Assembly: GCA_046482325.1 (NCBI GenBank)
Contig: JAWOFF010000107.1
Span: 1,244 to 65,243, forward strand
DNA: 64,000 bases
Origin: Desulfosalsimonadaceae bacterium
GTDB taxonomy: Bacteria > Desulfobacterota > Desulfobacteria > Desulfobacterales > Desulfosalsimonadaceae
Direction of reading: 5' to 3'
The notes beneath the pieces are model-generated. The model did no database searches. It was not told the DNA's origin and saw nothing but the letters and a program-made list of their open reading frames with translations. Each line of letters begins with the position of its first letter. The stretch's first letter is position 1. Positions 22,633-64,000 of the stretch are shown here, one piece after another. The position numbers and the translations under genes were made by a program.

Positions 22633-22640
22633 TTGCCAGC

Positions 22641-23720
22641 CTATCTAAGCTTCAGTGTACTGATTGCAATAAGCGCCATAAGAATCGAAACAATCCAGAA
22701 CCGCACAATTACCTTGGCCTCCGGCCAGCCTTTTAGCTCAAAATGATGATGGAGCGGCGCCATAAGAAAAATCCGCCGGCCCCCGCTCATCTTGAAATAG
22801 CCTACCTGAACAATGACCGAGAGCGCCTCCACAACAAAAATACCGCCCACAATCATCATGAGGATCTCCTGCTTGGTGATAACTGCAACAGTGCCGAGAA
22901 CTGCGCCCAAAGGCAGCGAACCCACGTCGCCCATAAAAACCTCTGCCGGATAGGTGTTAAACCAGAGAAAGCCCATTCCTGCCCCTGCAATGGCCCCGCA
23001 GATGATGGTAACCTCTCCGCTGCCATGGACGTAGGGAATCTGCAGATATTCGGCGATCCGGCTGTGACCGGCCACGTAAGCAAAAAGCATGTAGGTTGCC
23101 GCCGCTATGACCACGGGCCCGATTGCCAGCCCGTCCAGCCCGTCCGTAAGATTGACCGCATTGGACGTTCCCACAATAACAAGGGCGGCAAAGACTACAT
23201 AGCCAACCCCCAGGTCCGGGCGAAAGGTCTTAAAGAAGGGCACGGTCACACAGGAGTCAAAATCCGGACTTATATAGATCAGGGCCCCTGCGCTGACAGC
23301 CACCAGAAACTGAAAAAGCAGCTTCTCTCTGCCGGAGAGGCCCCGGTTCCGCTTTTGAATCTGCTTGAGGTAATCATCCGTGAAACCTATGGCGAAATAG
23401 CCGCAGGCTACCAGGAGTATGATCCATATATAAGAGTTTCGCAGATCCACCCAGAGAAGGACTCCCGCCAGAATAGCCGCCATAATCAGAACCCCTCCCA
23501 TTGTAGGCGTGCCTGCCTTGTCCTGATGGGCCTCAGGGCCCGCGCGCCGGATGTACTGTCCGATCTGCTTTTCACTGAGCTTGCCTATCACCCAGGGGCC
23601 CAGCAGAAAACAGATCAGAAACGCCGTAAGGCTCGCATAAATGGTGCGGAAGGTAATATAGCGAAATACATTAAAGGCAGATATGTCCGCATGCAGGGAA
23701 AACAGGAGATGATACAGCAT
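22641..23720 (-). CDS. mraY: phospho-N-acetylmuramoyl-pentapeptide transferase
   Basis: 359 aa polytopic membrane protein with [13 protein letters not shown] and APLHHHFE motifs. Confidence 0.95.
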
Positions 23721-23722
23721 AA

Positions 23723-25159
23723 TCAGACACTTCCCTCTGTAGTTGAAAAAGGCTCCCGCTGAACGAGCGCTTTTGCGATCTCATCCATGCCGGTGCTGCG
23801 CGAGCCTTTCACCAGCACCCAGTCGCCAGGGGCCAGCTCCCGGCAGAGCCTGTTGAAAATCTCGTCTTTGCTGCCCGCAAAAACAACTCCCGCATCCATT
23901 CCTCCAGCCCTTGCGCCGCCGGCAAAATCTCCGGCAAAATCTCCGCTTGTTAACAAGTGGTCCACGCCCATAAGCGCCGCCTGGCGGCCAGCCTCGTAAT
24001 GAAGCGCGGCGGCCCCCTCCCCGAGCTCCAGCATATCTCCCGCGACCAGAAAAGTCCTACCGCCTGCCCTGGCAGCAGTAAGCACCTCGATGGCCGCCTT
24101 CATGGATGCCGGATTGGCATTATAGGCATCGTCGATCACGTGTATTCCCCGGGCGGTAAGATTGTGGGCCATTCTGCCGCCAAGCGGCCGGAAACTCTCA
24201 AGCCCCGCTTTTACTGCCTCCCCGGAAACTCCAAGCACATAAGCGGTTCCTGCAGCCGCCAGCGCGTTGGAAACCATATGACGGCCCGGCACCTGCAGGG
24301 CTACCGCGACAGAGCAGCCCGGCAAAATGAGTTCAAACGCGCTGGCCGTACCCCTTTGCTCCACGGATTCTGCCCTCACATGGGCTTTTGCAGAGAACCC
24401 GAACCAGCATATGCGGTTTTGTGTTTTCCGGGAGAGGCGCTCTGCGTAAGCATCGTCAGCATTTAATACCACCGTACCGGAGGGCCGCACATGCTCAAAA
24501 AGCTCGGCTTTGGCTGCCATTACCTGGTCTACGCCCCTTACCCCCTCCAGGTGGGCCGGTCCGATATTGGTGATTACACCTACGTCAGGCTCGCTGATCT
24601 CGGCAAGCCCCCGGATCTCGCCCGGATGATTCATGCCAAGCTCGACAATGGCGGTTCGATGCGTGCAATCCAGCCGCAGAAGGGTAAGCGGCAGGCCGAT
24701 CTCGTTGTTCAGGTTGCCCCGGGTGAAAATGATATTGCGCTCCCGGCCCAGAATGGCCGCAACAAGCTCCTTTGTGGTGGTTTTGCCGTTAGAGCCTGTA
24801 ATCGCGGCAACCTGCACCTCCAGCCGCCTGCGGTGAAAGCTGGCCAGCTCGCCCAGCGCCTGGATGGTATCATCCACCAGAATGCAGCAGCCGCCGCTGC
24901 GCGCCCATTGGACAAGCATCCCGTGATCTGGCGGGACATCCTCCACGATGAGGCCTTTTATCCCTGTATTCATAAGCTTCGGTATAAAGGCGTGGCCGTC
25001 ATAGCGTTCTCCCTTGACGGCAACAAACACCTGATCCCTGGAGATAACGCGAGAATCGATGCAGATGCCCGAAAAAACGCCCTCCGGGGAGCCGGCCACA
25101 AGGGCGCCGCCCGTAGCTGCCAAAAGATCATTGATATGCCAGTTGTCCCTTTTCTGCAT
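23723..25159 (-). CDS. murF: UDP-N-acetylmuramoyl-tripeptide--D-alanyl-D-alanine ligase
   Basis: 478 aa with a [11 protein letters not shown] motif, in the dcw position. Confidence 0.95.
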
Positions 25160-26709
25160 CAGTTCATCGAAAGTGCGCGTATGGCGGTTTCCCGGTCATC
25201 AAAGGGCAGAACTTGGCTGCCCACGAGCTGATAGTCTTCATGGCCTTTCCCGGCAATAAGAACGCAGTCGCCCGGCTCTGCCGCCTGTATAGCCAGGAAA
25301 ATGCCTTTTTCCCGGTCCGGCTCAATTGCGTATCCGGCTTCTGCAGCCTTTGCGGATCTGAGATGCGCCGGGGAAAAACGCCGCTGCATAACCCGGCTAA
25401 CCCCGCCTTCGATGGCCGCGATAATCTGCATGGGAGATTCACTGCGGGGGTTATCCGAGGTGATCAGCGCGATATCGCTCATCTTTGCCGCAATCTCCCC
25501 CATTTTCGGCCGTTTGCCCGGGTCCCTGTCCCCTCCGCAGCCGAAAACGCAGATAATCCGGCCGGTAATAATGCGGCCGAGGGTGTCGAGCACATTTTCC
25601 AGCGCAGCAGGCGTATGGGCATAATCCACGAACACGTGCCGGCCGGTTGCATCCGAAATCCGCTCCAGCCGTCCGGGAACAGAGGAAAAGCTGCAAAGAG
25701 CCTTTCCAATCACCGAAGGTGCGATGCCCAGGGCTACTCCGGCAGCGGCGGCACAAAGCAGATTTTCCAGGTTAAACCGCCCAACAAGTCCGGAACTAAT
25801 GTATATGGCCCCCGCCGGCGTCTGAATGCAGAGGTCAATTCCTTCCGGGCCAAAGGAGACGTTTTCCGGATATACGCTGTGATTGCTATCCATTCCCACT
25901 TGCATCTGCAGACAGTCGTGCGGAGCTGCGGCCGCCATGGCCGGGCCCGCCGGATCGGACATATTGATCACGGCAGCACATGCTGCCCGCTCTTGTCTCT
26001 GCCGGAGTAAATCTTTGAACAGCAGCTTTTTGGCATCCCTGTAAGCATCCATATCCGAGTGAAAATCCAGGTGATCCCGGCTCAGATTGCTGAATATCCC
26101 CGCATCGAACCCGCATCCCCGCACCCTGTCCAGCGCCAGGCCGTGGGAGGAAACCTCCATTACCACATGGCTGACCCCGGCCGTATGCATATCCGCCAGG
26201 ATCCGCTGCAGGTCTGTTGCCTCCGGCGTTGTCAGGGAATTTTCCCACACCTTTCCACCGTATCTGCAGTTAATCGTTCCAATAACACCGGGCCGGGCAC
26301 CGCCTGCAGCCAGGATATGCTCCAGCAGATAAGCGATCGTGGTTTTCCCGTTTGTGCCGGTAATTCCGATCATAACCATCTTTTCAGAAGGGCTGCCAAA
26401 AAAGCTGGATGCAAGCTGTCCCAGAGCCCTGCGGGAGCTGGCAACCCTGAAAAAAACAGTCCCCGAGGGGACATCCGCCTCCTTCTCCGCTACGATCGCG
26501 CAGGCACCCCGGGATACGGCATCAGCTATAAAATCATGGCCGTCCGCATTCGTACCCTGTATGGCCACAAAAATACTGCCGGGTTCCACTCTGTCTGAGC
26601 GGTGCTCCACAGAGGCAACCTCTCTGTCTTCTCGGCCTGCCACGGGAAAACGGCTGTTTTCCCGGTCCATAAGCGATAAAATAGACTGCATGCAGGCACT
26701 CAGCTTCAT
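25159..26709 (-). CDS. murE: UDP-N-acetylmuramoyl-L-alanyl-D-glutamate--2,6-diaminopimelate ligase
   Basis: 516 aa with a GITGTNGKTT motif. DNPRSE near the C-terminus is typical of DAP-adding MurE. Confidence 0.95.
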   Translation of the reverse strand: MKLSACMQSILSLMDRENSRFPVAGREDREVASVEHRSDRVEPGSIFVAIQGTNADGHDFIADAVSRGACAIVAEKEADVPSGTVFFRVASSRRALGQLASSFFGSPSEKMVMIGITGTNGKTTIAYLLEHILAAGGARPGVIGTINCRYGGKVWENSLTTPEATDLQRILADMHTAGVSHVVMEVSSHGLALDRVRGCGFDAGIFSNLSRDHLDFHSDMDAYRDAKKLLFKDLLRQRQERAACAAVINMSDPAGPAMAAAAPHDCLQMQVGMDSNHSVYPENVSFGPEGIDLCIQTPAGAIYISSGLVGRFNLENLLCAAAAGVALGIAPSVIGKALCSFSSVPGRLERISDATGRHVFVDYAHTPAALENVLDTLGRIITGRIICVFGCGGDRDPGKRPKMGEIAAKMSDIALITSDNPRSESPMQIIAAIEGGVSRVMQRRFSPAHLRSAKAAEAGYAIEPDREKGIFLAIQAAEPGDCVLIAGKGHEDYQLVGSQVLPFDDRETAIRALSMN

Positions 26710-28460
26710 GCTCCCGGCTCCCGGCTCTTTACAGCCAAGTCATAATGTCTGTCTTTGTGATGCGGCGGCACATCCATGTAATTGAAAGCCTCCAGAATAA
26801 TGCTTCGGAATGCGGGCGCCGCCACTACCCCGCCGAAATGCTGCTTCCGGGGTTCGTTTACAACCACCAGAGCGGCCAGCTCAGGTTCGTCCTTGGGAGA
26901 AAACCCGACAAATACGGCATTGTACTCGCAGTTTTCATAAGTGCCTTCATCAGTTAGCTTCTGGGCGGTCCCGGTTTTGCCGCAAACCGGATAGCCCGCA
27001 GGAACCGCCTTGCTGCCGGTGCCTTCGCTGCTGGTAGCGGCAAACATCATGGATTTGAGCTGTTCCGCTGTATCCACGGATATGGCACGCCCCCTGTTTT
27101 CAGGCTCCAGACTCTCAAGCACCTTTCCGTTCTCATCGGTTATTGCCCTGACCATGCGGGGCTTCATTAGAATTCCGCGATTGGCGATAGCGGAGACGGC
27201 GCTTATCAATTGTACGGCAGAAACCGAAACTCCCTGACCAAAGGCGATATTGGCGCGATCAATAGTACGCCAGTTCTGATAATGGCGTAGCCGGCCCGAA
27301 GTTTCACCGGGGCAGTCTATTCCGGTTTTCTGCCCGAACCCGAAATCCTTCAGGGTCTTGTAGAGGCTCTCCGCGCCTGTTTTTTCCGCAATCTTGGCGG
27401 CCCCTATATTGCTGGAGTACTTGACTACTTCCCTAAGGGGGAGCATCTCATGGGGATGGATATCTTTAATTACATGGCCGCCGGTGCGGTACCTTCCGTC
27501 TTCGCAGTCAATAAGCGTATGCGGAGAAAGCCTGCCGGATTCCAGGGCAGCGCCGATGGTAAAAATTTTCATTGCGGATCCGGGTTCAAAGGGATCGGTT
27601 ATGGCCCGGTTCCGCCACCGGTATCGGGGATAGTCGCTAAAGGAGTTGGGATTAAAGGTCGGATAATGGGCAATAGCGCGTATCGCTCCGGTGCCGGGAA
27701 CCATTACCACCGCCAGCCCGGATCGGGCGCGGTATTTCTTTACCGCGGCTTCAAGCGCGTTTTCCGTGATGTACTGAATGTTTGCATCAATGGTCAGGAC
27801 CACGTTCCTGCCTGTTTCACGGGATGAGCTTTCGACTTCCCGGTAAAAAATACGGCCTATGGCGTCCTTTGCAATTGTGCACTGCTTTTTCTCGCCCTGC
27901 AAGTAGTCGTTGTAATAATATTCCAGCCCCTCCAGTCCGCCTCCCTCCACGCCGGTAAAACCCAAAACCTGGGCTGCAAGGCTTTTGTTCGGATACAGCC
28001 GGCTGAAACCGGGAATGTATTCCAGCCCCTCAATCGCCAGTGATTTCAACTTTTCCGCCTGCATTGATGAGACTTTACGGTCCAGCCATACAAAGGCTGT
28101 ATCGCGGCCAAGCTTTCTTTTAACTGAACTCCGGCTTAGATCAAGGGTGTCCGCAATTTTCCCCGAGGCGCCGCCGGGGGAATCCACGGCTTCGGGGTGG
28201 GCTCCCACAGCGACCGTGCGCATACTCACCGCAAGTTCCTTCATATTCACGTCATAAATCGTCCCCCTCCTTCCATCAGCCTGCACCGCCCTTTTGCATT
28301 CTCCTGAAGCCAGCCGGGACAAATCCGTGTCTTGAACAACCTGCACGTAGAATGCTTTCAGGCCGATAATAAGATAGCAAAGGGTAAACAGCACCCCCAC
28401 TACCATGATCCGGCAGTTGCGCCGCCTGATGCGTTCTCCGGTGATCTTGTTCTGCTTCAT
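26706..28460 (-). CDS. ftsI: penicillin-binding protein 3-type transpeptidase FtsI
   Basis: 584 aa with an N-terminal TM helix and SAMK (SxxK), SSN and KTGT motifs. Confidence 0.9.
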   Translation of the reverse strand: MKQNKITGERIRRRNCRIMVVGVLFTLCYLIIGLKAFYVQVVQDTDLSRLASGECKRAVQADGRRGTIYDVNMKELAVSMRTVAVGAHPEAVDSPGGASGKIADTLDLSRSSVKRKLGRDTAFVWLDRKVSSMQAEKLKSLAIEGLEYIPGFSRLYPNKSLAAQVLGFTGVEGGGLEGLEYYYNDYLQGEKKQCTIAKDAIGRIFYREVESSSRETGRNVVLTIDANIQYITENALEAAVKKYRARSGLAVVMVPGTGAIRAIAHYPTFNPNSFSDYPRYRWRNRAITDPFEPGSAMKIFTIGAALESGRLSPHTLIDCEDGRYRTGGHVIKDIHPHEMLPLREVVKYSSNIGAAKIAEKTGAESLYKTLKDFGFGQKTGIDCPGETSGRLRHYQNWRTIDRANIAFGQGVSVSAVQLISAVSAIANRGILMKPRMVRAITDENGKVLESLEPENRGRAISVDTAEQLKSMMFAATSSEGTGSKAVPAGYPVCGKTGTAQKLTDEGTYENCEYNAVFVGFSPKDEPELAALVVVNEPRKQHFGGVVAAPAFRSIILEAFNYMDVPPHHKDRHYDLAVKSREPGA

Positions 28461-28786
28461 GGCAGCACCACCATTTGTTCCGGCTCAGGGGTTCTCAGAT
28501 TAAACTGCCGGGCCGCCGCCCTGCTCAGGCTCTGGGGGGCAGTCAGCCTGGCCAGCTCGACCTGCAGGCTTTTCTGCATTTCCAGGAGCTCCTCCTGCCG
28601 CTTCTCGGCTGCGGTGATTTCATAACCGGTACGGATGCACTGTACCCCGCACCAGGTGTGAAAAAAAAACTCGACAAGAAAAATCAGGAGGAGCAGCAGA
28701 AACATCCGGACGAGCCCGGGGCTCAAGCGGGTGGATGGGGATTTTTTGTTTGTTTTCAGATTGCCCGCCACAGCCATGCCCCCCAT
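28457..28786 (-). CDS. ftsL: FtsL-like cell division protein
   Basis: 109 aa, single TM helix followed by a coiled-coil segment, located between rsmH and ftsI. Confidence 0.75.
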   Translation of the reverse strand: MGGMAVAGNLKTNKKSPSTRLSPGLVRMFLLLLLIFLVEFFFHTWCGVQCIRTGYEITAAEKRQEELLEMQKSLQVELARLTAPQSLSRAAARQFNLRTPEPEQMVVLP

Positions 28787-28789
28787 TGA

Positions 28790-29728
28790 TTACAATTTCT
28801 CCGCAACCCTCAGGCAGGCGCTCCTGGCCAGGGGGTTGCGCTGGATTTCCTCAGCCCCCGGCCGCTTGACTTTCTTTGTCAGCACCCGAAGCTTCGGCTC
28901 GTTGCCGCAAACGCATTCCGGAAAATCCCGCGGGCAGGTACAGGGATTTTCCAGGGACTTGAAACGATGTTTGACAATGCGGTCTTCAAGTGAATGAAAC
29001 GAGATTATGCAGATCCGGCCGCCGGGCTGCAAAAGCTCCACTGCAGCGGCAAGAAACCGGTCCAGCGCCTCTAGCTCCTGATTCACCGCAATACGAAGCG
29101 CCATAAAAATTTTTGTGGCCGGATGAATTTTGCGCTTGCCAAGAACCCGCCCGGGAACCGCTGCACGCACCAGCTCCACAAGCTCGCCGGTGGTGGCAAT
29201 CCGCTGTTTTTTGCGGCGGGCTACGATTTTATCAGCAATAGGCCCGGCCCATCTTTCTTCGCCGTAGTTTTTGAAAATCTGCTTCAGCGCACGGGCGGAT
29301 TCCTCGTTGACAATATCCGCCGCCCGCCGCGGGCCGTCTTCATTCATCCGCATATCCAGAGGCTCTTCATGCCTGAAACTGAATCCGCGTCCGCTGGATT
29401 CCAACTGATACAGCGAAACCCCGAGATCCGCCAGAATAGCATCGACAGCCCGGATACCTATCTTCGCCAGTATCTCCGGCAGATTTACAAAATTGTCGCG
29501 GACCAGGTGAATATTTGCTTCGTAAGGCCGCAGCTTTTGGGCCGCCGCTTCAATTGCGCCTCTGTCCTGATCAATGCCAATCAACAGCCCATCCGGCAGA
29601 ATTTTGTTTATGACGGCGGCTGCATGTCCGGCCCCGCCGACTGTGCAGTCAACACAGATACTTCCCGGCCGGCAATTCAGGCAGGCGAGAACCTCATCGA
29701 CCATTACTGGGGTGTGGCGATATTGCAT
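28790..29728 (-). CDS. rsmH: 16S rRNA (cytosine1402-N4)-methyltransferase
   Basis: 312 aa with HTPVMVDEVL, DCTVGGAGHA and SFHSLEDRIVK motifs. Confidence 0.95.
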   Translation of the reverse strand: MQYRHTPVMVDEVLACLNCRPGSICVDCTVGGAGHAAAVINKILPDGLLIGIDQDRGAIEAAAQKLRPYEANIHLVRDNFVNLPEILAKIGIRAVDAILADLGVSLYQLESSGRGFSFRHEEPLDMRMNEDGPRRAADIVNEESARALKQIFKNYGEERWAGPIADKIVARRKKQRIATTGELVELVRAAVPGRVLGKRKIHPATKIFMALRIAVNQELEALDRFLAAAVELLQPGGRICIISFHSLEDRIVKHRFKSLENPCTCPRDFPECVCGNEPKLRVLTKKVKRPGAEEIQRNPLARSACLRVAEKL

Positions 29729-29732
29729 CGGA

Positions 29733-30182
29733 TCAAAGCCCTAATTTGGCAATTTCGCTTTGAACCTCCTCATCCTGCATATCCTCTTCTTCAAGCTTAA
29801 GATTCTCTTCCTCCCAACGCTGCCTTGACCAGATTTCAAAATGATCCAGCACGCCGACCAGAACGATTTCTTTTTGAAGCCTGGCATAATTTCGCAGCTC
29901 AGGGGGAATCAAAATCCGACCCTGCCTGTCCACCGGGCAATGCTGCACCGCACCAATAAAAACCCGCCTGAAGCGGCGCATGGCCTCGCTTTTTTCCGCA
30001 AGCGAGTGGATGCGCTCTTCAATTTTTTCCCATTCATCCACTGGATATGCAAACAGGGCCTTATCCAGGCGCGTCACCATCAGGGCCTGCTCCTTCTTGG
30101 TCTGCAGGATCTCCCGGAACCTGACCGGAATGATAAGCCGCCCCTTTGTATCGATGTTATGATTGGAACTTCCCCTGAACAA
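29733..30182 (-). CDS. mraZ: transcriptional regulator MraZ
   Basis: 149 aa. MFRGSSNHNIDTKGRLIIP and a second GRILIP repeat. TTG start. Confidence 0.95.
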   Translation of the reverse strand: MFRGSSNHNIDTKGRLIIPVRFREILQTKKEQALMVTRLDKALFAYPVDEWEKIEERIHSLAEKSEAMRRFRRVFIGAVQHCPVDRQGRILIPPELRNYARLQKEIVLVGVLDHFEIWSRQRWEEENLKLEEEDMQDEEVQSEIAKLGL

Positions 30183-30192
30183 TGGTCCTGCT

Positions 30193-30217
30193 CTCCATTA
30201 ACATCCATTTTAATCCA
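30193..30217 (-). promoter_or_regulatory. candidate MraZ operator: three direct TGGAN repeats with 10-bp phasing
   Basis: The minus strand reads TGGAT-taaaa-TGGAT-gttaa-TGGAG (plus-strand 30213..30217, 30203..30207, 30193..30197). It sits between the candidate -10 and the mraZ TTG start. Confidence 0.4.
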
Positions 30218-30225
30218 CATTTCTT

Positions 30226-30256
30226 ATAATACTACAGAAAGAATTCGTTATGTCAA
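30226..30256 (-). promoter_or_regulatory. candidate dcw (Pmra-like) promoter
   Basis: The minus strand has TTGACA (30256..30251). TAGTAT follows after a 16-nt spacer (30234..30229), or TATTAT after 19 nt (30231..30226). The region is an AT-rich island. Confidence 0.4.
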
Positions 30257-30480
30257 CAGGAAAACGATTTATATCTATTTTTTTTTCTAATAATTATTAG
30301 CAGTTAATTTTATATATACAGATGAATAAATAGTGGATATTTGTGGGAGGCTTGAAAAACAACGGTTTATCCGGCACTATTCTGGAAAACTTATAAAACA
30401 CAGGCCGGGCAGCTCTGCCTGAATCGGGCAGCCGAAACGAAAACACCAGGTGTCTGGTTCAAGGGATCCGCACGGAGGCT

Positions 30481-30515
30481 AACGAATAAACGGGTGCTAT
30501 GGAAACCCGGCACCC
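30481..30515 (-). terminator. weak candidate terminator downstream of mrpG
   Basis: On the minus strand GGGTGC pairs with GCACCC across a 12-nt loop, then G and TTTATTCGTT follow. The 6-bp stem and interrupted U-tract make this weak. Confidence 0.25.
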
Positions 30516-30582
30516 CGGAGACCGGTACCGACAGGGGAAACAGGCAGGCAGCACATGCGGCGGGGCTGCCGGAGGGATCTGT

Positions 30583-30966
30583 TCAGGAGGGATCGTTTTC
30601 GGCTGGCGGGACCTTATTCTGCTCTTCCCTGTCCGGCCCGTGCCACTGGCAGACATTTGCAAACTCATCAATCCAGGTTTTATGCCAAAGGTTCACCCTG
30701 CTGCAGTAGGCGGCGCGACCTATGAGGTGGGCCGCCACAGGAGCCGTCAGCAGTAGAAAAAAAACAGCGGCAAGCGCCCGCAGCGTAATCGGGGGCTCTG
30801 AATAGAAGGCGCCCACAGCCAGAAAAACAAGCCCGGCGCCCAAAGCCCCTGCCTTGGTTGCTGCATGCATCCGGATAATGGTATCCTGGAGGCGCAGCAT
30901 ACCGACAGATGCTATAAAGGCGAAGATCGCACCACTCAGCAGCAGAAAAGCCGTAATAATCTCCAT
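30583..30966 (-). CDS. mrpG: Mrp-type cation/H+ antiporter subunit G
   Basis: 127 aa, MnhG-like (FAFIASVGMLRLQDTIIRMHAATKAGALG). Confidence 0.9.
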   Translation of the reverse strand: MEIITAFLLLSGAIFAFIASVGMLRLQDTIIRMHAATKAGALGAGLVFLAVGAFYSEPPITLRALAAVFFLLLTAPVAAHLIGRAAYCSRVNLWHKTWIDEFANVCQWHGPDREEQNKVPPAENDPS

Positions 30967-31286
30967 CAGGAGCTATCCTCTTCTTTTTCTGTTTCTCCGG
31001 GCCCGCCCCCGGCCATCCGCTCCCGGAAACGGGCCAGGGCCACTGTACCAAGAAAAGCAATCAGCGCATAAGCGATGGCCACATCCAGAAATGCCCGCTC
31101 CCCCGTATAGATGGCAAAAACGCCCAGGCAGGAGACGATCAGAACCGATATCAGGTCCATGGCAACAATCCGGTCCGCGGCATCCGGACCGATAAGCAGC
31201 CTGATAAATGCAAATAAAATTGCAAGCGACAAAAGAACCAGCGCAAGCTCTGCTGTACGGGCAAGAAGAACGCTTTCCACAGCCAT
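30966..31286 (-). CDS. mrpF: Mrp antiporter subunit F
   Basis: 106 aa, MnhF-like (LLIGPDAADRIVAMDL). Confidence 0.85.
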   Translation of the reverse strand: MAVESVLLARTAELALVLLSLAILFAFIRLLIGPDAADRIVAMDLISVLIVSCLGVFAIYTGERAFLDVAIAYALIAFLGTVALARFRERMAGGGPGETEKEEDSS

Positions 31287-31762
31287 CAGCGAATCGCCTC
31301 CAGAACACGTTTTTCAATTCCCTGCTTGATTTGCCTGCGGGCTGCCTCCACATCATCCAGAAACATCACATGCACATACAGACATTTGCGGTCTCCGGAC
31401 ACGTCCAGGCTCAGGGTACCGGGCGTGAGTGAGACAAGGTTGGCCACCAGCATGATCTCAAAATCCGTCTGCGCATCAAGGCTCACTGCAATCACTCCCG
31501 GCCGGCTTGTCGGCCGGGGCGTGACGACATCCCAGAGCACCCGCAGGTTGGAGACCAGGAGCTGACCGATAAAATAGGCGGCCAGCCGCAGAATGCGGAC
31601 GACCCGGCCAAAATAGGCGCTTGGCCCGTATAAGGGACGGGTAACCCACAGGGCCAGGTAGCCGATGGCAAAGCCGGCCGCAAACCCGCTCAGGTTAACC
31701 TGTCCCATGATCGCGCAGAATCCCGCTGCAAGAAAAAGATTCAGCAGAAATAAATGGCTCAT
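31286..31762 (-). CDS. mrpE: Mrp antiporter subunit E
   Basis: 158 aa, MnhE-like, overlapping its neighbours. Confidence 0.85.
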   Translation of the reverse strand: MSHLFLLNLFLAAGFCAIMGQVNLSGFAAGFAIGYLALWVTRPLYGPSAYFGRVVRILRLAAYFIGQLLVSNLRVLWDVVTPRPTSRPGVIAVSLDAQTDFEIMLVANLVSLTPGTLSLDVSGDRKCLYVHVMFLDDVEAARRQIKQGIEKRVLEAIR

Positions 31763-33258
31763 ACGCCCCCCAGCACGGCTTCTACATAAATTTCAGGATG
31801 AAGCAGCTCATGAGCTGCAGCCGAAGCTATTTCCAAAAAAGGAGCCGGGAAAAGTCCGAGCATCAGGGTAACTGCTGCAAGAGCGCCAACCGGAAGCATC
31901 ATCCAGCCATGGCCGGCCCGGCCCTTATCCGCGGGCTCCTGCTCTTGTTCCGCGGGAGCCGGCTTCCAGAAAGCCTCCTGCCATATCTTTGTCATGGAGT
32001 AAATGGTAAGCAGCCCCACAACAGCAGCTGCGGCGGCAGCCACATAGGCCCCGGACTCAAGGCTTGCCCTGATCAGCATCATCTTGGCCCAGAAGCCGGA
32101 GAGAGGCGGAAATCCGGCAAGGGAGAAAGCGGGGACGAAAAACAAAAAAGCAAGAAATCCCCGGCTTCCGTAGAAACCGCCCAGCCGCGAAAGCTCGAAG
32201 GATCCGCCGACTCTGCGGCAGATACCGCTTACAAGAAAAAGGTTGGTTTTTACAATCATATGGTGGAGCAGATAAAACACTGAACCGGCAAGTGCCAGCG
32301 GTGTGAAAAGCGCGAGCCCCAGCACCATGTAGCCCACCTGGCTGACAATATGAAAGGAGAGAATCCGCCGGAACTCCTGAAATGCAGCAGCGCCGAGCAC
32401 CCCCGTTATCATGGTAAAAACAGCCGCCACAAGAAGAAGACCATGAGTATAGGCCATATTAAAGGTAAAGACGAGGGTAAACATTCGAATCAACGCATAG
32501 ACTCCAACCTTGGTCAAAAGCCCCGCCAGTATGGCAGAAACCGCCACCGGCGGAGTGTGATAAGAGACCGGCAGCCAGAAAAAAAGCGGAAACAGACCTG
32601 CCTTAATGCCAAAACCCGCCATGAAAACCGCGGCCACCGCTGTAAGAAGGGCCTTGTCCGGCACACTCTGTACCTGCAGATACAGATCGGCCATGTTCAG
32701 GGTGCCGGTGATGCCATAGAGAAAGCCCAGGCCGCTTATAAACAGAAGGGTTGAGAAAAGATTGATCATGACGTATTTCACCCCGCCGTCAAACTGCTCC
32801 TTTTTCCGGCCCAGTACCAAAAGCCCGAATGAGGCCATCAGCATCACCTCAAACCAGACGTAGAGATTGAACAAATCGCCCGTCACAAAGGCGCCGCATA
32901 CCCCGCCGATCAGGATATGCAGCAGGGGATAAAATCCGGCGGCGACAAGCCGCGGGGCGATCTCCGCTTTTGCATAAACCGTGACGGCAAGGCCAAGTGT
33001 TGCCGTCACCGCGATCATAATGGCGCTCAGATGATCCGCAACAAAGGTTATACCGAAAGGCGCGGGCCAGGAGCCGATCTGCACGCTCATGATACCGCTG
33101 TTTGCGATCCGCACAAGAAGGGCAATACATATCCCGAAATGAACTACTCCGCCAAAGCCGGCAAGCCTCTGCTGCTTTCCTGAGTCACGGCGCAGCCCCA
33201 GGCTTGCCGCAGCAAGGCCGAAGGGCAGAATAACAGGCAGTACCAGGAGCCAGCTCAT
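31759..33258 (-). CDS. mrpD: Mrp antiporter subunit D (NuoN/ND2-like)
   Basis: 499 aa polytopic protein of the proton-antiporter-like family. Confidence 0.9.
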   Translation of the reverse strand: MSWLLVLPVILPFGLAAASLGLRRDSGKQQRLAGFGGVVHFGICIALLVRIANSGIMSVQIGSWPAPFGITFVADHLSAIMIAVTATLGLAVTVYAKAEIAPRLVAAGFYPLLHILIGGVCGAFVTGDLFNLYVWFEVMLMASFGLLVLGRKKEQFDGGVKYVMINLFSTLLFISGLGFLYGITGTLNMADLYLQVQSVPDKALLTAVAAVFMAGFGIKAGLFPLFFWLPVSYHTPPVAVSAILAGLLTKVGVYALIRMFTLVFTFNMAYTHGLLLVAAVFTMITGVLGAAAFQEFRRILSFHIVSQVGYMVLGLALFTPLALAGSVFYLLHHMIVKTNLFLVSGICRRVGGSFELSRLGGFYGSRGFLAFLFFVPAFSLAGFPPLSGFWAKMMLIRASLESGAYVAAAAAAVVGLLTIYSMTKIWQEAFWKPAPAEQEQEPADKGRAGHGWMMLPVGALAAVTLMLGLFPAPFLEIASAAAHELLHPEIYVEAVLGGV

Positions 33259-33653
33259 AGGCTGCCCTCCCCATGTAGTTTGTCCGCATGAGCCGATTGC
33301 TCCTCCGGCGGTTCGGCATAGTCCATTTTTTCAGTATCCACCGTGCCCAGAGACTGATAGCAGCGATAGAACAGGATAAACACGAAGGTTAGAAGGGCAA
33401 AACCAATGACAATGGCTGTCAGGATAAGAGCCTGTGGCAGTGCATTGGCCACGGGCTCTGCAGGGATGCCCGCACTTTCGCCGATAAGCGGCGGATTGGA
33501 GCTTGAGAGCCGGCCGGCCGCAAAAAGGATCAGGTTGACAGCATTGGTTGCCAGCATCAACCCGAATATGAAACGGATGATATTGCCCGAGAGCATCAGA
33601 TAAATGCAGGCTGCCGCCATTAAGCCGCACAAAAAAGACAGAACCGTTTCCAT
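33255..33653 (-). CDS. mrpC: Mrp antiporter subunit C (NuoK-like)
   Basis: The start is set at ATG 33653 (METVLSF), 1 nt after the mrpB stop. The protein is small with three TM helices. Confidence 0.85.
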   Translation of the reverse strand: METVLSFLCGLMAAACIYLMLSGNIIRFIFGLMLATNAVNLILFAAGRLSSSNPPLIGESAGIPAEPVANALPQALILTAIVIGFALLTFVFILFYRCYQSLGTVDTEKMDYAEPPEEQSAHADKLHGEGSL

Positions 33654-33654
33654 G

Positions 33655-34068
33655 TCAACTCTCTTCCAGCGCCAGGACAAGGGTTAGAATGGTTCCCAGC
33701 ACAATGGCATAAACCCCGGCATCAAAAAAAAACGGGGTCCCCACGGCCAGTTTTTTCTCTCCAATTTCAGCAGCGGAGAACCAAAGGCCGGTAAGAAAAG
33801 GTGCTCCGGCAAAAGCAGCCGCCAGACCGGATAAAAGCACCAGGAACAGGCCAAAGACAATCAAAACCCGCGGATCGATGCGGATAGCCCGCCGCACCGA
33901 TTCGGCCCCTTCGGATATGGCATAAAGGGCAAAGCCGGTTCCTGCCACAAGAGCCCCGGAAAAACCGCCACCCGGCGCGTTGTGCCCGCGGAGCAGAAGA
34001 TAGACCGAAAACACCAGGATCAGGCTCACCAGAAGCCGCGTGGCGATTCGAAGTATCAAAGACTGCAT
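33655..34068 (-). CDS. mrpB: Mrp antiporter subunit B
   Basis: 137 aa, MnhB-like membrane protein. Confidence 0.85.
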
Positions 34069-36326
34069 CAGTTGCTCCGCTTTTTCTCGATCAAGGCATA
34101 GGCCGCCAGACCGGCTGCCGCCACCACGGTGACCTCGCCCAGGGTGTCCATGCTGCGGAAATCCACAAGGATCACATTGACGATATTTTTCCCGTGCGCG
34201 GCGAGATAGCTGTTGTGCTCAAAAAATGCAGTGACCGAGCGGTCCAGCGGGATCGAGAGCACAGCCAGCATCAGCACTGCTACCATCACGCCGGTGCCCG
34301 CGGCCAGCAGCCCGTCAAAAACGCGGCGCATCCGCTGCGGCCGGGGCTGTTTCTCCATTCGGGGCAGGCGCAGCAGGATCATGGAGACAATGATTACCGT
34401 AAGGGTTTCCACAAGGAGCTGGGTAAGGGCCAGGTCCGGAGCGCCGAAACTGACAAAAATAAGAGCTATGGCCGCCCCCACAACCCCCATGGCACAGATC
34501 GCAAGCAGCATGATGCGGGTTGCCACCACCGTCATCACGGCCATCGCTATAACACTCACCAGCAGCCACTGCCACAAAGGGAGCCCTGGCACTGACAGAG
34601 CCGGCAGGTCAGGGGCCCCCGTCAGGTAGCCATACCCCGCGCTAAACAAAAAAGCGGCCACTACAATAAAAAAATAGTGATGCAGGGAGCCGTTCTGCAA
34701 AAGCCGCGTCTGCATTCGTCCCGCGGCGGAAACAGCTTGCAGGCACCAGTCATAAACCCCGGAGGCGGTTGCAGGAAAGCGGTTTGCGGCGGCGCTGAGC
34801 CAGTTTGAGAGACTGCGGCGCCGGAGATAAAAACAAAGCCCCAGCAAAAGGGTGAGAGCACTCAAAAGAAGCGGTTCATTGATGCCGTGAAAGAGCGAAA
34901 GCTTGATGTCTTTTCCGGAGACATCAAAAGCGCGCACCGCGGGCTGCACCAGCCAGTGCCCCACCTGATCCGGTACAAGGCCGAAAACAATGCCCAGGCC
35001 GCCCAGAACCACGGGACCGCACCACATGCAGACCGGCGCTTCCCCCCGAGATGCCGGGAAATTACCTGTTTTCCCCAGGAAAGGGCCTATGGCAACAATG
35101 CCGGCAATCGCCGTCATAAGGGCATTGGAGAAAACAGCCGCTCCTGCCGCCAAGGCGGGGCAAAGGGCTTCGGCCAGGGCCCCCTTGTACATGATCTCCT
35201 TTCCTATAAATCCAAAAAACAATGGAAACCCGGCCATGGAAAGGCAGGCGGCAAAAACGGCAAAAGCGGTGGCCGGCATGGATTTCATAAGCCCGCCCAG
35301 CGCGGAGACCTCCCTGGTCCCGGTCTGGTGGTCGATGATGCCCGCAGCCAGGAAAAGACCTGATTTATACAGTGAGTGCACCAGCAGGAAAGTAATGGCA
35401 GCAGTGAGCGAGGGACTTGCGCTCCCGCCCAGAAACATGGTCATAAGACCCAGGGCGGTAAGCGTGGTATAGGCCAGAATCTTTTTCAGATCTGTCTGAA
35501 AGATAGCAAGCAAAACGCTGCCCGCTGCAGTCACAGCACCGACCACCATGAGCGGCGCGGTCCAGGCCATGGTCCCTCCGAGAATCGGATGAAAACGGGC
35601 CAGCAGGTAGATGCCGGCCTTTACCATGGTTGCAGAATGGAGAAAAGCGCTTATGGGCGCAGGCGCCGCCATTGCATCCGGGAGCCAGAAATGAAAGGGA
35701 AACAGGGCGGACTTGGTAAACGCCCCCAGAAAAATCAGGACAAGCACCGTCCCGTAGAGGCGATGGTTCTTCAGCACATCAGAGAGCCCGATCATCTCGG
35801 ACATTGTATATGTGCCGGCCATTATTTTAAGCAGCAGAAAGCCGGCCAGAAGGGCCAGGCCGCCCGCTCCGGTTACCAGAAGCGCCTGTCGCGCGCTTCT
35901 TCGTGCCTCCGGCTTGTCATGCTCAAAACCGATCAAAAGAAAGGAGAAAACCGTGGTCAGCTCCCAGAATACAAAAAGCGCAATCACGTTATCTGCAGTT
36001 ACAAGACCCGCCATGGAGAGCATAAATGAGTGCAGAAACACGAAAAAGCGTCCGGTATAACCGTGGCCGTGCAGGTAGTCCACGGCATAGACAGAGACAA
36101 AGAAACCGACGGCGCTGGCGATCAGCACAAAAAGAACGGCAAGCCCATCTACCAAAAAAGAGAGGTTCACCCCCAGGCCGGGCGCCCAGGGCAGCTCGAA
36201 ACGGAAGACGCCGCCAGCCGCGGTTTCCGGGACTGCCGCACAGGCGAGCGCAAAAACGGCCAGAGGCAGCACGGAGCTGGCCCTGGCCAGATGCTTTGTG
36301 CGGTTACTTTCGTGCATGTGCTTCAT
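34068..36326 (-). CDS. mrpA: Mrp antiporter subunit A (NuoL/ND5-like)
   Basis: 752 aa polytopic protein and first gene of mrpABCDEFG. All neighbouring genes overlap or abut. Confidence 0.9.
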
Positions 36327-38891: not shown

Positions 38892-39974
38892 TCAAAATGT
38901 GGCCAAAGCCTCTGTGGCGGCCTCTTTCACTGTTGCGGAATAGGCGCCTTCGACTACAGCCTCCAGCTTGGGCCGAACCCCTGTCTGGCCGGTTTCACCG
39001 AAGAGATACAAAATATCGCCCTTTACCGGATCCTCCACCTCGTCAAACTGCCGCCACAGTTCTCCCACCACCTCACGGATCAAATCGCTGCGCCTGCCGG
39101 CCAGATACTCTACAGTAACCATGGCCCCCAGCCTCACGGGCCACAAAACATGGGTGAGCAGCTCATAGAAGGCCGGAAAAATTTTGCCCGCCTCAGCCAT
39201 CATTTCCGCAAGCTCCGCCGCCTTTCCGTCATAGAGGATCTGCTTTAAGGTTTCGCTGCCAAGCTGGGCGGGGTCCCGGTTCACAAGCATATCAATAATT
39301 TCGGGAATCTGAATTGAGCCCGTCCAGCGAATCTGGTCGTCAAGAAAGACCGTCGGCACAGAGCTCACCTTGTCGGCTGCAGCCAGTTCAGGGAACATGC
39401 CCCCGTCGATTACAAACAAATGAATCATCTCCTGCTGCATGGCCAGTCCGGCAATGGATTCCACGGTTTGCGGACAGAAAGGGCAGGCGGCTGTAATATA
39501 AGCTTTTATCACAGCGGGCATGCCAAGCTTCTCCAGCACCTGCGTATCCGAGAAATGCCTTGATCCGGCCGCTTCCCCGCCACCCGAGAGCACACGCAAA
39601 AAGGGCTCCAGCTCATGGCCCTGCGGTACCGCCTGATACGTAATATTGGGGGAAATCTGGATTTTTGGCAGCTCATCTTCACCCTCCTGCTGGGTGGTTA
39701 CATGAAGCGCAGGAACAAGCCCGGCAATCTGCCGGGCAAAATCGTAAAACTGGCTGCTGCGGCTGTCGCTGCTCAAAATTACGTTCATGGGCCGAGGCGA
39801 GTCGATACGATTCGCCCATTGGGTTATGGTTTTTTCATCATTTCCCGTCATGAAAAAAATCCCTGCCTGTTTTTTATCTGATTTGCATTTCTTCGGTTTA
39901 TCCTCCTGCATTATACTGCCGTTTTGGCTATCCATACCGAATCTGTACGGAAATGACAATATGAATGTTTCCAT
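38892..39974 (-). CDS. thioredoxin-fold protein (AhpF-N/PDO-like double Trx fold, CPFC site) with a helical C-terminal domain
   Basis: 360 aa. AACPFCPQT followed by VSSVPTVFLD is typical of glutaredoxin-like Trx folds. The C-terminal third is helical-repeat-like, which I have not verified. The start is uncertain. Confidence 0.65.
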   Translation of the reverse strand: METFILSFPYRFGMDSQNGSIMQEDKPKKCKSDKKQAGIFFMTGNDEKTITQWANRIDSPRPMNVILSSDSRSSQFYDFARQIAGLVPALHVTTQQEGEDELPKIQISPNITYQAVPQGHELEPFLRVLSGGGEAAGSRHFSDTQVLEKLGMPAVIKAYITAACPFCPQTVESIAGLAMQQEMIHLFVIDGGMFPELAAADKVSSVPTVFLDDQIRWTGSIQIPEIIDMLVNRDPAQLGSETLKQILYDGKAAELAEMMAEAGKIFPAFYELLTHVLWPVRLGAMVTVEYLAGRRSDLIREVVGELWRQFDEVEDPVKGDILYLFGETGQTGVRPKLEAVVEGAYSATVKEAATEALATF

Positions 39975-62165: not shown

Positions 62166-62879
62166 CTATATGTCCTGCGGCTCCCCGCCGCGTTCTCCTT
62201 CGGCCCCGGCTGCTGCCAGGGTATCTCTGACGATCCGCAGGATTTCCTCCGGCGTATCCGCCATCTTCATAATATGGATATCCTCGGGCGAGATCATACC
62301 GTTGCCCAATAACTGGCATTTGATCCAGTCAATCAGGCCGCACCAGTATGCGGAATCAAAGAGAATCACCGGCAGCGGCTTGATCCGGTAGGTCTGAATC
62401 AGAGTTACCGCCTCAAACAGTTCATCCAGCGTCCCGAAACCGCCCGGCATGATGATATAAGCCATGGCATATTTGACAAACATCACCTTTCGGGTGAAAA
62501 AATACTTGAATTCCAGCTTCACATTGGCGTAGTCGTTTGGTTTCTGCTCCATGGGCAGCTTGATGTTCAGGCCTATGGACTGACCGTTGTGGCCGGCCGA
62601 AGCCGCGCCCTTATTGCCGGCTTCCATGATGCCCCCGCCCCCGCCTGTAATCACGGCGAAGCCGTTTTCCACCAGCAGCTCCGCCGTGCGGACGGCAGCC
62701 TGATAGTAATGACATCCGCTGCTCATGCGGGCCGACCCGAAAAGGCTCACAGCCGGCCCTATATCGTGCAGGGTCTCTATGCCGTCCACAAACTCGCCCA
62801 TAATCTTGAACAGGCGCCAGGACTCGCCGAGCTTGAATTCGTCTATCAGATACTGATGTACAGGCTTTCTGTCTTTCAT
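62166..62879 (-). CDS. LOG-family (TIGR00730) nucleotide 5'-monophosphate nucleosidase
   Basis: 237 aa with GGGGGIMEAGNKGA and PGGFGTLDELFE motifs. Confidence 0.9.
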   Translation of the reverse strand: MKDRKPVHQYLIDEFKLGESWRLFKIMGEFVDGIETLHDIGPAVSLFGSARMSSGCHYYQAAVRTAELLVENGFAVITGGGGGIMEAGNKGAASAGHNGQSIGLNIKLPMEQKPNDYANVKLEFKYFFTRKVMFVKYAMAYIIMPGGFGTLDELFEAVTLIQTYRIKPLPVILFDSAYWCGLIDWIKCQLLGNGMISPEDIHIMKMADTPEEILRIVRDTLAAAGAEGERGGEPQDI

Positions 62880-62891
62880 TGGATAAAACTC

Positions 62892-62913
62892 CCTGCCGGC
62901 ATCCTGCCGGCAT
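62892..62913. repeat. perfect tandem duplication of the 11-mer CCTGCCGGCAT containing the palindrome TGCCGGCA
   Basis: Copies at 62892..62902 and 62903..62913. The two 8-bp palindromes can pair as a hairpin with a 3-nt loop. It sits between the glutaredoxin-like stop and the LOG SD/ATG. Confidence 0.8.
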
Positions 62914-62925
62914 CAATCACGCCCG

Positions 62926-63144
62926 TCAGCTTCTGCCCTTAAAGCCGATGGAGACTTCCCCGCCGTCAACAATCACGGGAATCCGGCGGCTGCCGCCGGT
63001 ATACGCCAGCATGGTTTCAAGCTCCTCCCTATCCGCTGACACGTCAATATATTTTACATCCCGGAATTTTTTTTCGTAAGCTTCCCGAGCCGCGCGTGTA
63101 AACGGTCATCTGGATTTGCCGAAAATAATGATGCAGTCGCCCAC
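62926..63144 (-). CDS. glutaredoxin-like protein with in-frame TGA at the first CxxC position (candidate selenoprotein, UPFT site)
   Basis: Hand translation gives (GTG)GDCIIIFGKSR-TGA-PFTRAAREAYEKKFRDVKYIDVSADREELETMLAYTGGSRRIPVIVDGGEVSIGFKGRS-stop. GGAGG lies 4 nt before GTG 63144. The TGA is at 63108..63106. This ORF is not in the six-frame track because of the TGA. Confidence 0.65.
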
Positions 63145-63244
63145 GCCCCCTCCGTCGATATAATTTTATTTGAATTCAATAAGTTGAGGTAAAAGTAAAT
63201 TGTATTTAGGTATCAGCGGCGCAAGAGGATGTCAATGATTTCCT

Positions 63245-63274
63245 TTGACAAAAAGCGGCAAAGCCTGCTATATA
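63245..63274 (+). promoter_or_regulatory. candidate strong promoter of ptsH-ptsI
   Basis: Consensus TTGACA (63245..63250), an 18-nt spacer ending in TGc, then TATATA (63269..63274), an extended -10. Confidence 0.55.
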
Positions 63275-63307
63275 ATTTTAGTTATCATATTGAAAACAAT
63301 CAAAAAG

Positions 63308-63588
63308 ATGCATGAGATAAAAAAGCGCTGAAAAGAAATATTACCATCACCAATGAACTCGGTCTTCACGCAAGGCCCGCCGCAATGGTGGCCGAGTTGG
63401 CGGGCAAAGCCGAATCCAATGTCTGGTTGATCAAAAATGATCAATACGCGGATGCCTCGAGCATCATCGACATCCTCTCACTGGCCTGCTTGCAGGGCTC
63501 AACCATCATCCTTCAAATCGAAGATCCAGCGGATGAAGAAATACTGAATCAGCTTCACGAGCTGTTCCAATCCGGCTTTGGAGAATAA
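63308..63588 (+). CDS. ptsH: HPr-family phosphocarrier protein; the intact reading frame needs a -1 shift (or one extra A) in the A6 run 63319..63324
   Basis: The HPr frame (ALKRNITITNELGLHARPAAMVAEL...ASSIIDILSL) is open from 63316 but has no ATG/GTG/TTG before the His15 motif. ATG 63308 (MHEIKK) is in the +1-offset frame and stops at TGA 63329. The track ORF 63385..63588 starts after the active-site His. Confidence 0.6.
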
Positions 63589-64000
63589 ATGACGCCGAGA
63601 GAACGCGAAATTGTATTAAACGGCATCAGTGGATCGCCCGGGATCTGCATTGGCAAGGCCTATCTTGTGGACCGGGAGGGGGTTGATGTAATAGAGAAGT
63701 ACTACATCCCCGAAGATCAGGTCCCAAACGAAGTTTCACGGTTTAAAAACGCCGCTAAAAAGGCCAAAAACGAACTGGCCCAGGTACTGCAGAGCCTGCC
63801 CGAGGATCTGCGCCAGCAGGCCTATATCCTTGAGACCCACATGCTTTTGCACAAGGACAAGATGCTCTACGGCAAAACCATTGAGCTTATCGAATCCAGC
63901 AGGGTCAATGCCGAATGGGCCCTCAAAGAAGCCACCTCCCGGGCAAAGAACATGTTCGAGGCCATCACAGATCCCTATCTGCGCAGCCGCTCCGCTGATG
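63589..64000 (+). CDS. ptsI: phosphoenolpyruvate-protein phosphotransferase (Enzyme I), 3'-truncated by window edge
   Basis: The ATG follows the ptsH TAA directly. The frame is open to nt 64000 (checked by hand). N-terminus LNGISGSPGICIGKAYL is typical of EI. Confidence 0.85.
   Translation, partial: MTPREREIVLNGISGSPGICIGKAYLVDREGVDVIEKYYIPEDQVPNEVSRFKNAAKKAKNELAQVLQSLPEDLRQQAYILETHMLLHKDKMLYGKTIELIESSRVNAEWALKEATSRAKNMFEAITDPYLRSRSAD

Follow-up and report, generated by a model that had tools for sequence, protein, structure and literature searches.

Does a short glutaredoxin-like reading frame that is interrupted by an in-frame TGA encode a selenoprotein and, if so, where does the protein end? 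The question is raised by a minus-strand locus in the 64,000-nucleotide stretch of Desulfosalsimonadaceae bacterium DNA that we analysed (contig JAWOFF010000107.1; hereafter the window). A sequence-only reading had proposed a 72-codon gene that begins at GTG 63144 behind a GGAGG, carries a TGA (63108..63106) as a selenocysteine (Sec) codon in a U-P-F-T site, ends at 62926 and is invisible to stop-to-stop ORF calling. Read directly, the minus-strand translation from GTG 63144..63142 is VGDCIIIFGKSR*PFTRAAREAYEKKFRDVKYIDVSADREELETMLAYTGGSRRIPVIVDGGEVSIGFKGRS*RA*. The start codon, the GGAGG (63153..63149) and the in-frame TGA of the U-P-F-T site (UGA1) are all confirmed, and homologues have an ATG at the position aligned with GTG 63144, 12 codons ahead of the Sec/Cys codon. 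The stop-to-stop ORF listing indeed contains a mere 38-aa fragment (62926..63042) at this locus. The end of the gene, by contrast, had been misplaced: the supposed stop (TGA 62928..62926; UGA2) is a second Sec codon, followed by CGG GCG TGA to give the C-terminus U-R-A-stop. We take the real coding sequence to be 63144..62917 (75 aa) because the TGA-X-X-stop arrangement recurs in every close homologue. The locus is thus very probably a real gene for a small glutaredoxin-like selenoprotein with two Sec codons, in its identity as well as in the gene model given here (Table). Ordinary gene callers miss such a gene wholly, since 12 codons precede UGA1 and UGA2 resembles a stop; spotting UGA1 alone still leaves the protein truncated, with the family-defining residue lost.

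Table. Positions of the two-Sec gene, its putative recoding elements and the downstream gene in the window.
Feature	Position	Strand	Basis or remark
Corrected coding sequence	62917..63144	-	75 codons plus stop, with Sec13 and Sec73; translation, NF041114, PF00462, homologous loci
Product, M/V-GDCIIIFGKSR-U-PFTRAAREAYEKKFRDVKYIDVSADREELETMLAYTGGSRRIPVIVDGGEVSIGFKGRS-U-RA		-	UXX-star selenoprotein family 1 member
Shine-Dalgarno-like GGAGG	63149..63153	-	4 nt 5' of the GTG start; read directly
UGA1 (Sec13)	63106..63108	-	opens the U-P-F-T active-site motif; aligned column TGA in 29 loci, TGC/TGT in 60
SECIS1 candidate, CGCGGCUCGGGAAGCUUACG	63075..63094	-	begins 11 nt past UGA1; in the A-A-R-E-A-Y codons
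UGA2 (Sec73)	62926..62928	-	antepenultimate residue; TGA-X-X-stop in 73 of 89 loci
True stop, TGA	62917..62919	-	sequence reading and homologue comparison
SECIS2, UGCCGGC-AGGAU-GCCGGCA	62894..62912	-	13 nt past UGA2; dG about -13.6 kcal/mol
LOG/TIGR00730-family gene	62166..62879	-	downstream; TIGR00730 135.3 bits versus a cut-off of 96.35

With Cys written for Sec, the 75-aa form of the protein scored 97.9 bits and the 72-aa form 95.9 bits against the NCBIfam model NF041114, 'UXX-star selenoprotein family 1' (cut-off 72 bits), and the parent model NF041212, 'Uxx-star family glutaredoxin-like (seleno)protein', was passed as well (79.2 bits versus a cut-off of 66). The protein ends in Sec-X-X-stop, as the UXX-star family is defined, and in its glutaredoxin-like domain the CxxC motif is replaced by U/C-x-x-T, here U-P-F-T with a Thr that is invariant in the alignment. 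Everything tested agrees with family 1, namely a glutaredoxin-like domain of about 75 aa, the U/C-P-x-T motif, a C-terminal U-X-X-stop and two Sec; there is no difference of kind, and identity to two database proteins is 57–59%. The same family was given with UxxT as 'Distant Grx-like protein 1' in a 2022 review (PMC9312934), and a 2026 review equates NF041114 with 'Distant Grx-like protein 1', UxxT, 2 Sec (PMC13188914). Since the family is already curated, its two-Sec content included, it is the sequence that is new here and not the kind.

The comparison with related families sharpens this assignment. UXX-star families 2 and 3 and the HUGP/GUXX-star fusion likewise combine a glutaredoxin-like domain with a U-X-X-stop ending, and the window protein is below the cut-offs of NF041211 (58.8 versus 100), NF047338 (47.7 versus 97) and NF045501 (33.6 versus 325). 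The protein is glutaredoxin-like, as initially described, with a Pfam PF00462 (Glutaredoxin) match of 36.7 bits against a cut-off of 22.9 when Cys is written for the first TGA; the NrdH model TIGR02194 gave 21.6 bits against a cut-off of 85.75. The NrdH and YruB glutaredoxin-like redoxins (TIGR02194, TIGR02196) resemble the window protein in size (about 75 aa) and in fold, whereas they have CxxC and no Sec where the window protein has U-P-F-T; the TIGR02196 score was 29.1 versus a cut-off of 88.55, and that for the glutaredoxin model TIGR02181 (Grx3) was 28.4 versus 90. A classical dithiol glutaredoxin or NrdH is accordingly ruled out by the motif, U-P-F-T and not CxxC, and by scores below the family cut-offs. 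The CP(Y/F)C motif that had been expected in Cys-containing relatives is also absent from them, the relatives having C-P-[FH]-T. The selenoprotein glutaredoxins (UxxC, Clostridium oremlandii Grx1, PF00462) share with the window protein the glutaredoxin fold and Sec at the first active-site position; unlike them, the window protein has Thr for the second active-site Cys, an extra C-terminal Sec and, judged from the model of a homologue, no C-terminal helix.

A likeness of another sort is to animal thioredoxin reductase, a large flavoenzyme with a eukaryotic-type SECIS, whose C-terminal Gly-Cys-Sec-Gly-stop forms a flexible tail that shuttles redox equivalents. Expression of this tail in E. coli, reportedly achieved by Arner et al. 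in 1999, used a bacterial SECIS placed directly past the stop codon. As in thioredoxin reductase, Sec lies 2 or 3 residues from the C-terminus in the window protein, and as in the E. coli construct the SECIS lies 3' of the stop. Unlike thioredoxin reductase, the host is an 8-kDa glutaredoxin fold, and the bacterial 3'-UTR SECIS is natural here.

The comparative evidence comes from 89 loci, that is, the window and 88 homologous loci, of which 8 were obtained from a GTDB genome scan and 80 from a metagenome scan. All 8 GTDB loci are from Desulfobacteraceae, Desulfobacterales, Thermodesulfobacteriota or 'Deltaproteobacteria' MAGs, and the nearest MAG locus (L001, uncultured Desulfobacteraceae) has 83% identity. 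The nearest named relatives belong to the Desulfobacteraceae/Desulfobacterales lineage, which has been described as among the richest in selenoproteins (PMC13188914). The NF041114 cut-off was exceeded by all sampled subgroups. At the active-site column (position 13), which always lies within [U/C]-[PQ]-x-T, the codon is TGA in 29 of the 89 loci and a Cys codon (TGC/TGT) in the other 60. At position 73, TGA-X-X-stop is found in 73/89 loci and Cys-X-X-stop in one (L058), while L060 is unclear and 14 loci are tail-less. The first 'stop' in the tail is invariably TGA, and the tail's last residue is V, A, I or L throughout; for the final stop, TGA (48), TAA (9) and TAG (7) all occur. Judged from the aligned codons, Sec/Cys pairing is shown at both columns, and the Cys/Sec pair among orthologues at the UGA1 column, which had been named as the decisive check, was found.

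In 24 Sec-form loci we find again both TGAs, set exactly 60 codons apart in a frame that is open elsewhere, which is far beyond chance. Across the 59 codons from one UGA to the other, these 24 Sec forms have neither a further stop nor a frameshift, and dN/dS relative to the window is 0.14–0.36 over the same codons; by this measure the codons downstream of UGA1 are under purifying selection. A decayed gene in orthologues, an outcome that would have spoken for a pseudogene, was seen in none of the homologous loci. The central proposal of the sequence-only reading, a glutaredoxin-like selenoprotein whose active-site motif opens with Sec, is therefore supported by the 29 TGA and 60 Cys loci and by the dN/dS values.

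Several homologues merit separate mention. The protein database contains two relatives: P0001, which has Trp at both Sec positions, i.e. TGA was taken as Trp by the gene caller, and P0002, which is filed at NCBI under the name 'UXX-star selenoprotein family 1' and carries CPFT. The sole Cys form of the C-terminal position is found in L058 (1507-1695), which reads C-M-V-TAA. In L060 the TGA is followed by ACG ACG CCG, with no stop nearby. Four loci (L056, L062, L063 and L064) make up a separate two-Sec clade with U-Q-Y-T ... GW-U-E-V-stop. Fourteen marine CPHT relatives (L067, L072, L075, L077-L083 and L085-L088) have no X-X-stop tail; they end right after GYTG[ED] with TAA or TGA as the stop, and they just pass NF041114 (76.2 versus 72). 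Automatic naming of these tail-less marine relatives as 'UXX-star selenoprotein' would be wrong.

Past UGA2 lies a strong hairpin, SECIS2, that the sequence-only reading, with its single SECIS, had missed. Since two codons and a stop are all that follows UGA2, this element lies wholly in the 3' UTR. Drawn with 8 bp, the hairpin in the window is UGCCGGCA-GGA-UGCCGGCA, at -13.6 kcal/mol. A hairpin occupies this position in 52 of 55 distinct homologue sequences, its stem beginning 12–20 nt from the U of UGA2, and the median dG is -8.6 kcal/mol as compared with -3.2 in shuffles. In a MAFFT alignment of 49 sequences the stems fell into register unguided, with one invariant loop G followed by G or U, so that the apical loop consensus is N-G-K-N-N. 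In this alignment 90.4% of cells are paired and all eight pairs show compensatory changes; doubly changed cells number 82 versus 28 in shuffles, and none of 500 shuffles reached the observed covariation. When the partner strand was slid by 1–3 columns as a control, pairing dropped to 20–51%. RNAalifold independently returned a 6-bp stem with a 5-nt loop. A covariance model (R1) was built from 32 SECIS2 sequences, with the window and its two closest relatives left out; its best hit in both strands of the window (128 kb) was 62913..62892, at 21.3 bits and an E-value of 0.04. R1's second-best hit (39717..39738), with the loop AGAUU, lacks any UGA or Cys on its upstream side and was rejected as a chance match. 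The hairpin was not called by a terminator scan, and there is no T-run 3' of it in most homologues.

The hairpin downstream of UGA1, SECIS1, had been noted before as beginning 11 nt after the UGA and as weak in its stem; it is present at 63094..63075, and we agree on its weakness (about -2.8 kcal/mol). Its core pairs are G63090:C63080, C63089:G63079 and U63088:A63078, beneath the apical loop CGGGA (63087..63083). Every one of the 17 distinct Sec forms has the core pairs G:C, C:G and N:N'. The third of these pairs varies (U:A in 14, G:C in 2 and C:G in 1), and a fourth pair covaries, with 3–5 mismatches whichever register is chosen. The loop is CGUGA or CGGGA in 17/17 Sec forms, 18 nt past the UGA, and matches the N-G-K-N-N consensus of SECIS2. 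The 3-bp core together with the C-G-K-G-A (xGK) loop is found in 17/17 distinct Sec forms versus 6/35 Cys forms (p = 5e-9 by Fisher's test, with no correction for phylogeny). In the separate clade with U-Q-Y-T as its Sec site, the loop is CGUGC, lies 19 nt past UGA1 and tops a 6-bp lower stem. The element is mostly dictated by the Ala-Arg-Glu-Ala codons. In the window, synonymous recodings of the peptide fold more stably than the actual sequence (z = +1.3), and the Sec forms as a group have no excess stability over synonymous recoding (mean z = -0.26). Because synonymous randomisation gave no signal, we dropped the energy argument and used the Sec-versus-Cys association instead. The SECIS2-derived model R1 did not detect SECIS1. 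A conserved SECIS-like structure after UGA1, as earlier expected, has the core, the loop and one covarying pair in its favour, and the lack of excess stability and of detection by R1 against it; SECIS1 is probably a real element, though a weak one.

These data can be set against four other explanations of the locus. It is very unlikely that the product is a 72-residue protein with Sec13 as its single Sec, ending at TGA 62928..62926, and that the downstream hairpin is a terminator or unrelated. In favour of such a protein, 14 of the 41 long ORFs in the window end in an ordinary TGA stop, and the hairpin is G+C-rich and lies just past the coding region; however, the codon is TGA in 73 of 73 tailed loci, whereas the final stop and the stops of tail-less loci vary between TGA, TAA and TAG. 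Between it and the next stop there are invariably two sense codons, of which the last encodes V, A, I or L, and L058 has a Cys codon in place of this TGA (C-M-V-TAA). The hairpin, too, stands at a fixed distance from UGA2 with an invariant loop G and no terminator call, and U-X-X-stop is the defining feature of the curated family. We give equally little weight to the converse possibility that UGA2 alone is decoded as Sec, UGA1 being read poorly or not at all (near-cognate suppression or a non-functional element). Against this stand the same short element in all 17 distinct Sec forms, with pairs that covary (UA/GC/CG), a loop that shares with SECIS2 both the N-G-K-N-N consensus and the distance from the UGA (18–19 nt), and the independent U-Q-Y-T clade with its CGUGC loop 19 nt past UGA1; moreover, selection could act on nothing downstream if UGA1 were not read through. 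What speaks for it is that SECIS1 has just 3–4 apical pairs in the window, at about -2.8 kcal/mol, and escapes R1.

A decayed glutaredoxin pseudogene, its active-site Cys codon turned into a stop by mutation, would have in its favour that standard ORF calling yields nothing but fragments here and that SECIS1 is weak. Yet 29 loci from several clades share this TGA, additional stops and frameshifts are absent and dN/dS past the TGA is 0.14–0.36, while the hairpin and its loop are found where the codon is TGA (17/17 Sec versus 6/35 Cys forms); contradicted by these comparative data, a pseudogene is most improbable. Least credible is an alternative genetic code with UGA as a sense codon for Trp or Gly. 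Trp does stand at both positions in the database entry of homologue P0001, but TGA ends 14 of 41 long window ORFs, which contradicts the reading, and the aligned homologue residue is Cys, never Trp or Gly. The two-Sec gene model is the one that we retain.

Genes for Sec decoding were sought in the window. ARAGORN found no tRNA or tRNA-Sec in the 64 kb, Rfam at gathering thresholds gave no matches in the window, and no SelA, SelB or SelD was found among the 10 window proteins tested. Size-matched neighbouring ORFs considered as selA or selB turned out to encode, among others, pyruvate kinase and an RNase II-like protein. A search of the window for other TGA-interrupted ORFs (at least 60 codons on each side) and for UGAs upstream of R1 hits gave no credible second selenoprotein. 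The second-best R1 hit falls inside a gene (38892..39974, minus strand) for a 360-aa protein with a CPFC motif, an uninterrupted ORF and thus a Cys form, with a weak match to the AhpF N-terminal domain; it scored 64.5 bits against TIGR02187, 'PDO_seleno_TRX' (cut-off 185), a family that has selenoprotein members. On the same strand, at least 14 tightly packed or overlapping ORFs at 21259..36326 look like one large operon.

The UXX-star gene is divergent from ptsH-ptsI and is followed by the LOG-family gene, beyond which lies a DNA methyltransferase gene. These neighbours recur in homologous loci (ptsI in 20, ptsH in 16, LOG in 16 and the methyltransferase in 7), and the order ptsI-ptsH, UXX-star, LOG/TIGR00730, methyltransferase is kept in 16–20 loci (window 62166..63999, loci L001-L030). 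This synteny may reflect shared ancestry within the Desulfobacterales rather than function. A promoter scan found one sigma-70-like site (63303..63275, minus strand), no more than in shuffles. The ATG of the LOG-family gene lies 37 nt past the UXX-star stop and 14 nt past SECIS2, and co-transcription of the two genes is probable. The AGGGAG Shine-Dalgarno of LOG abuts the SECIS2 stem. Because the LOG start is 14 nt from the stem and its Shine-Dalgarno abuts it, SelB binding or the SECIS2 hairpin itself could influence LOG translation.

On the other side of the locus, the start of ptsH (HPr; 63308..63588, plus strand) is irregular. There is no in-frame ATG, GTG or TTG before the His15 region, the frame being open from the stop at 63313..63315, and from CTG 63328 the protein scores 80.8 bits against TIGR01003 (cut-off 47.9). 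Compared with L001 and L009, the nearest relatives, the ATG at 63308..63310 is one base out of frame, with 20 nt instead of 21 nt to the CTG, and an A6 run (63319..63324) adjoins the discrepancy. The irregularity could stem from a miscounted homopolymer in the assembly, from a genuine frameshift or from initiation at the CTG.

The fold was approached through an AlphaFold model of the homologue P0001, with Trp at both Sec sites, which was built from a two-sequence alignment and has a mean pLDDT of 75.7. The model has the order strand-helix-strand-helix-strand-strand, with residues 72-75 disordered. It ends after strand 63-68 and the disordered tail and so has no C-terminal helix, the glutathione-binding region in glutaredoxins; the window protein has about 7 residues past the corresponding final strand. 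The best PDB matches of the model are glutaredoxins and NrdH, including 3ic4, 7c10 (C. oremlandii cGrx1) and 1h75, with TM-scores of about 0.67–0.71; 4hs1 is a further structural match. The model suggests that the window protein has a glutaredoxin core that lacks the C-terminal helix and has a flexible tail with Sec73 in its place.

In the scheme that we propose, translation would initiate at GTG 63144. UGA 63108..63106 would be decoded as Sec13, directed by the in-frame hairpin 11–30 nt downstream, and UGA 62928..62926 as Sec73, directed by the strong hairpin with the N-G-K-N-N loop in the 3' UTR, 13 nt past the UGA. The flexible tail would then bring Sec73 to Sec13, the two forming a diselenide (a selenenylsulfide in the Cys13 forms) as a redox couple; alternatively, Sec13 and Sec73 would jointly coordinate a soft metal or metalloid through their selenolates. 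Sec13 would be the most likely partner of Sec73, because the resolving Cys position of CxxC is an invariant Thr and the tail replaces the helix. Taken by itself, this mechanism, be it a redox or a metal-binding pair, is put forward tentatively, with rather less than even confidence. Its specific form is no likelier: an intramolecular Sec13–Sec73 diselenide in which the U-X-X tail stands in for both the resolving Cys and the glutathione-binding helix, and which serves a dedicated partner. Natural diselenide redox centres are very rare, and a very low potential is expected of them.

The two Sec positions differ in their tolerance of Cys, which is found at position 73 in 1 of 74 loci versus 60 of 89 at position 13. 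Because Cys is nearly absent at position 73 (73 Sec to 1 Cys) and frequent at position 13 (29 to 60), the alignment suggests that the catalytic group which cannot be spared is the tail selenol rather than the classical active site. If the diselenide reading is true, the dedicated partner would lie in soft metal or metalloid handling or in redox control of the probably co-transcribed LOG-family nucleotide hydrolase. As it stands, the locus leaves the knowledge of selenoproteins unchanged and supplies a new Desulfobacteraceae-type member for a family whose function is little known. It also brings together two bacterial SECIS solutions in a single gene of 228 nt, the one, probably real though weak, squeezed into conserved codons and the other placed in the 3' UTR.
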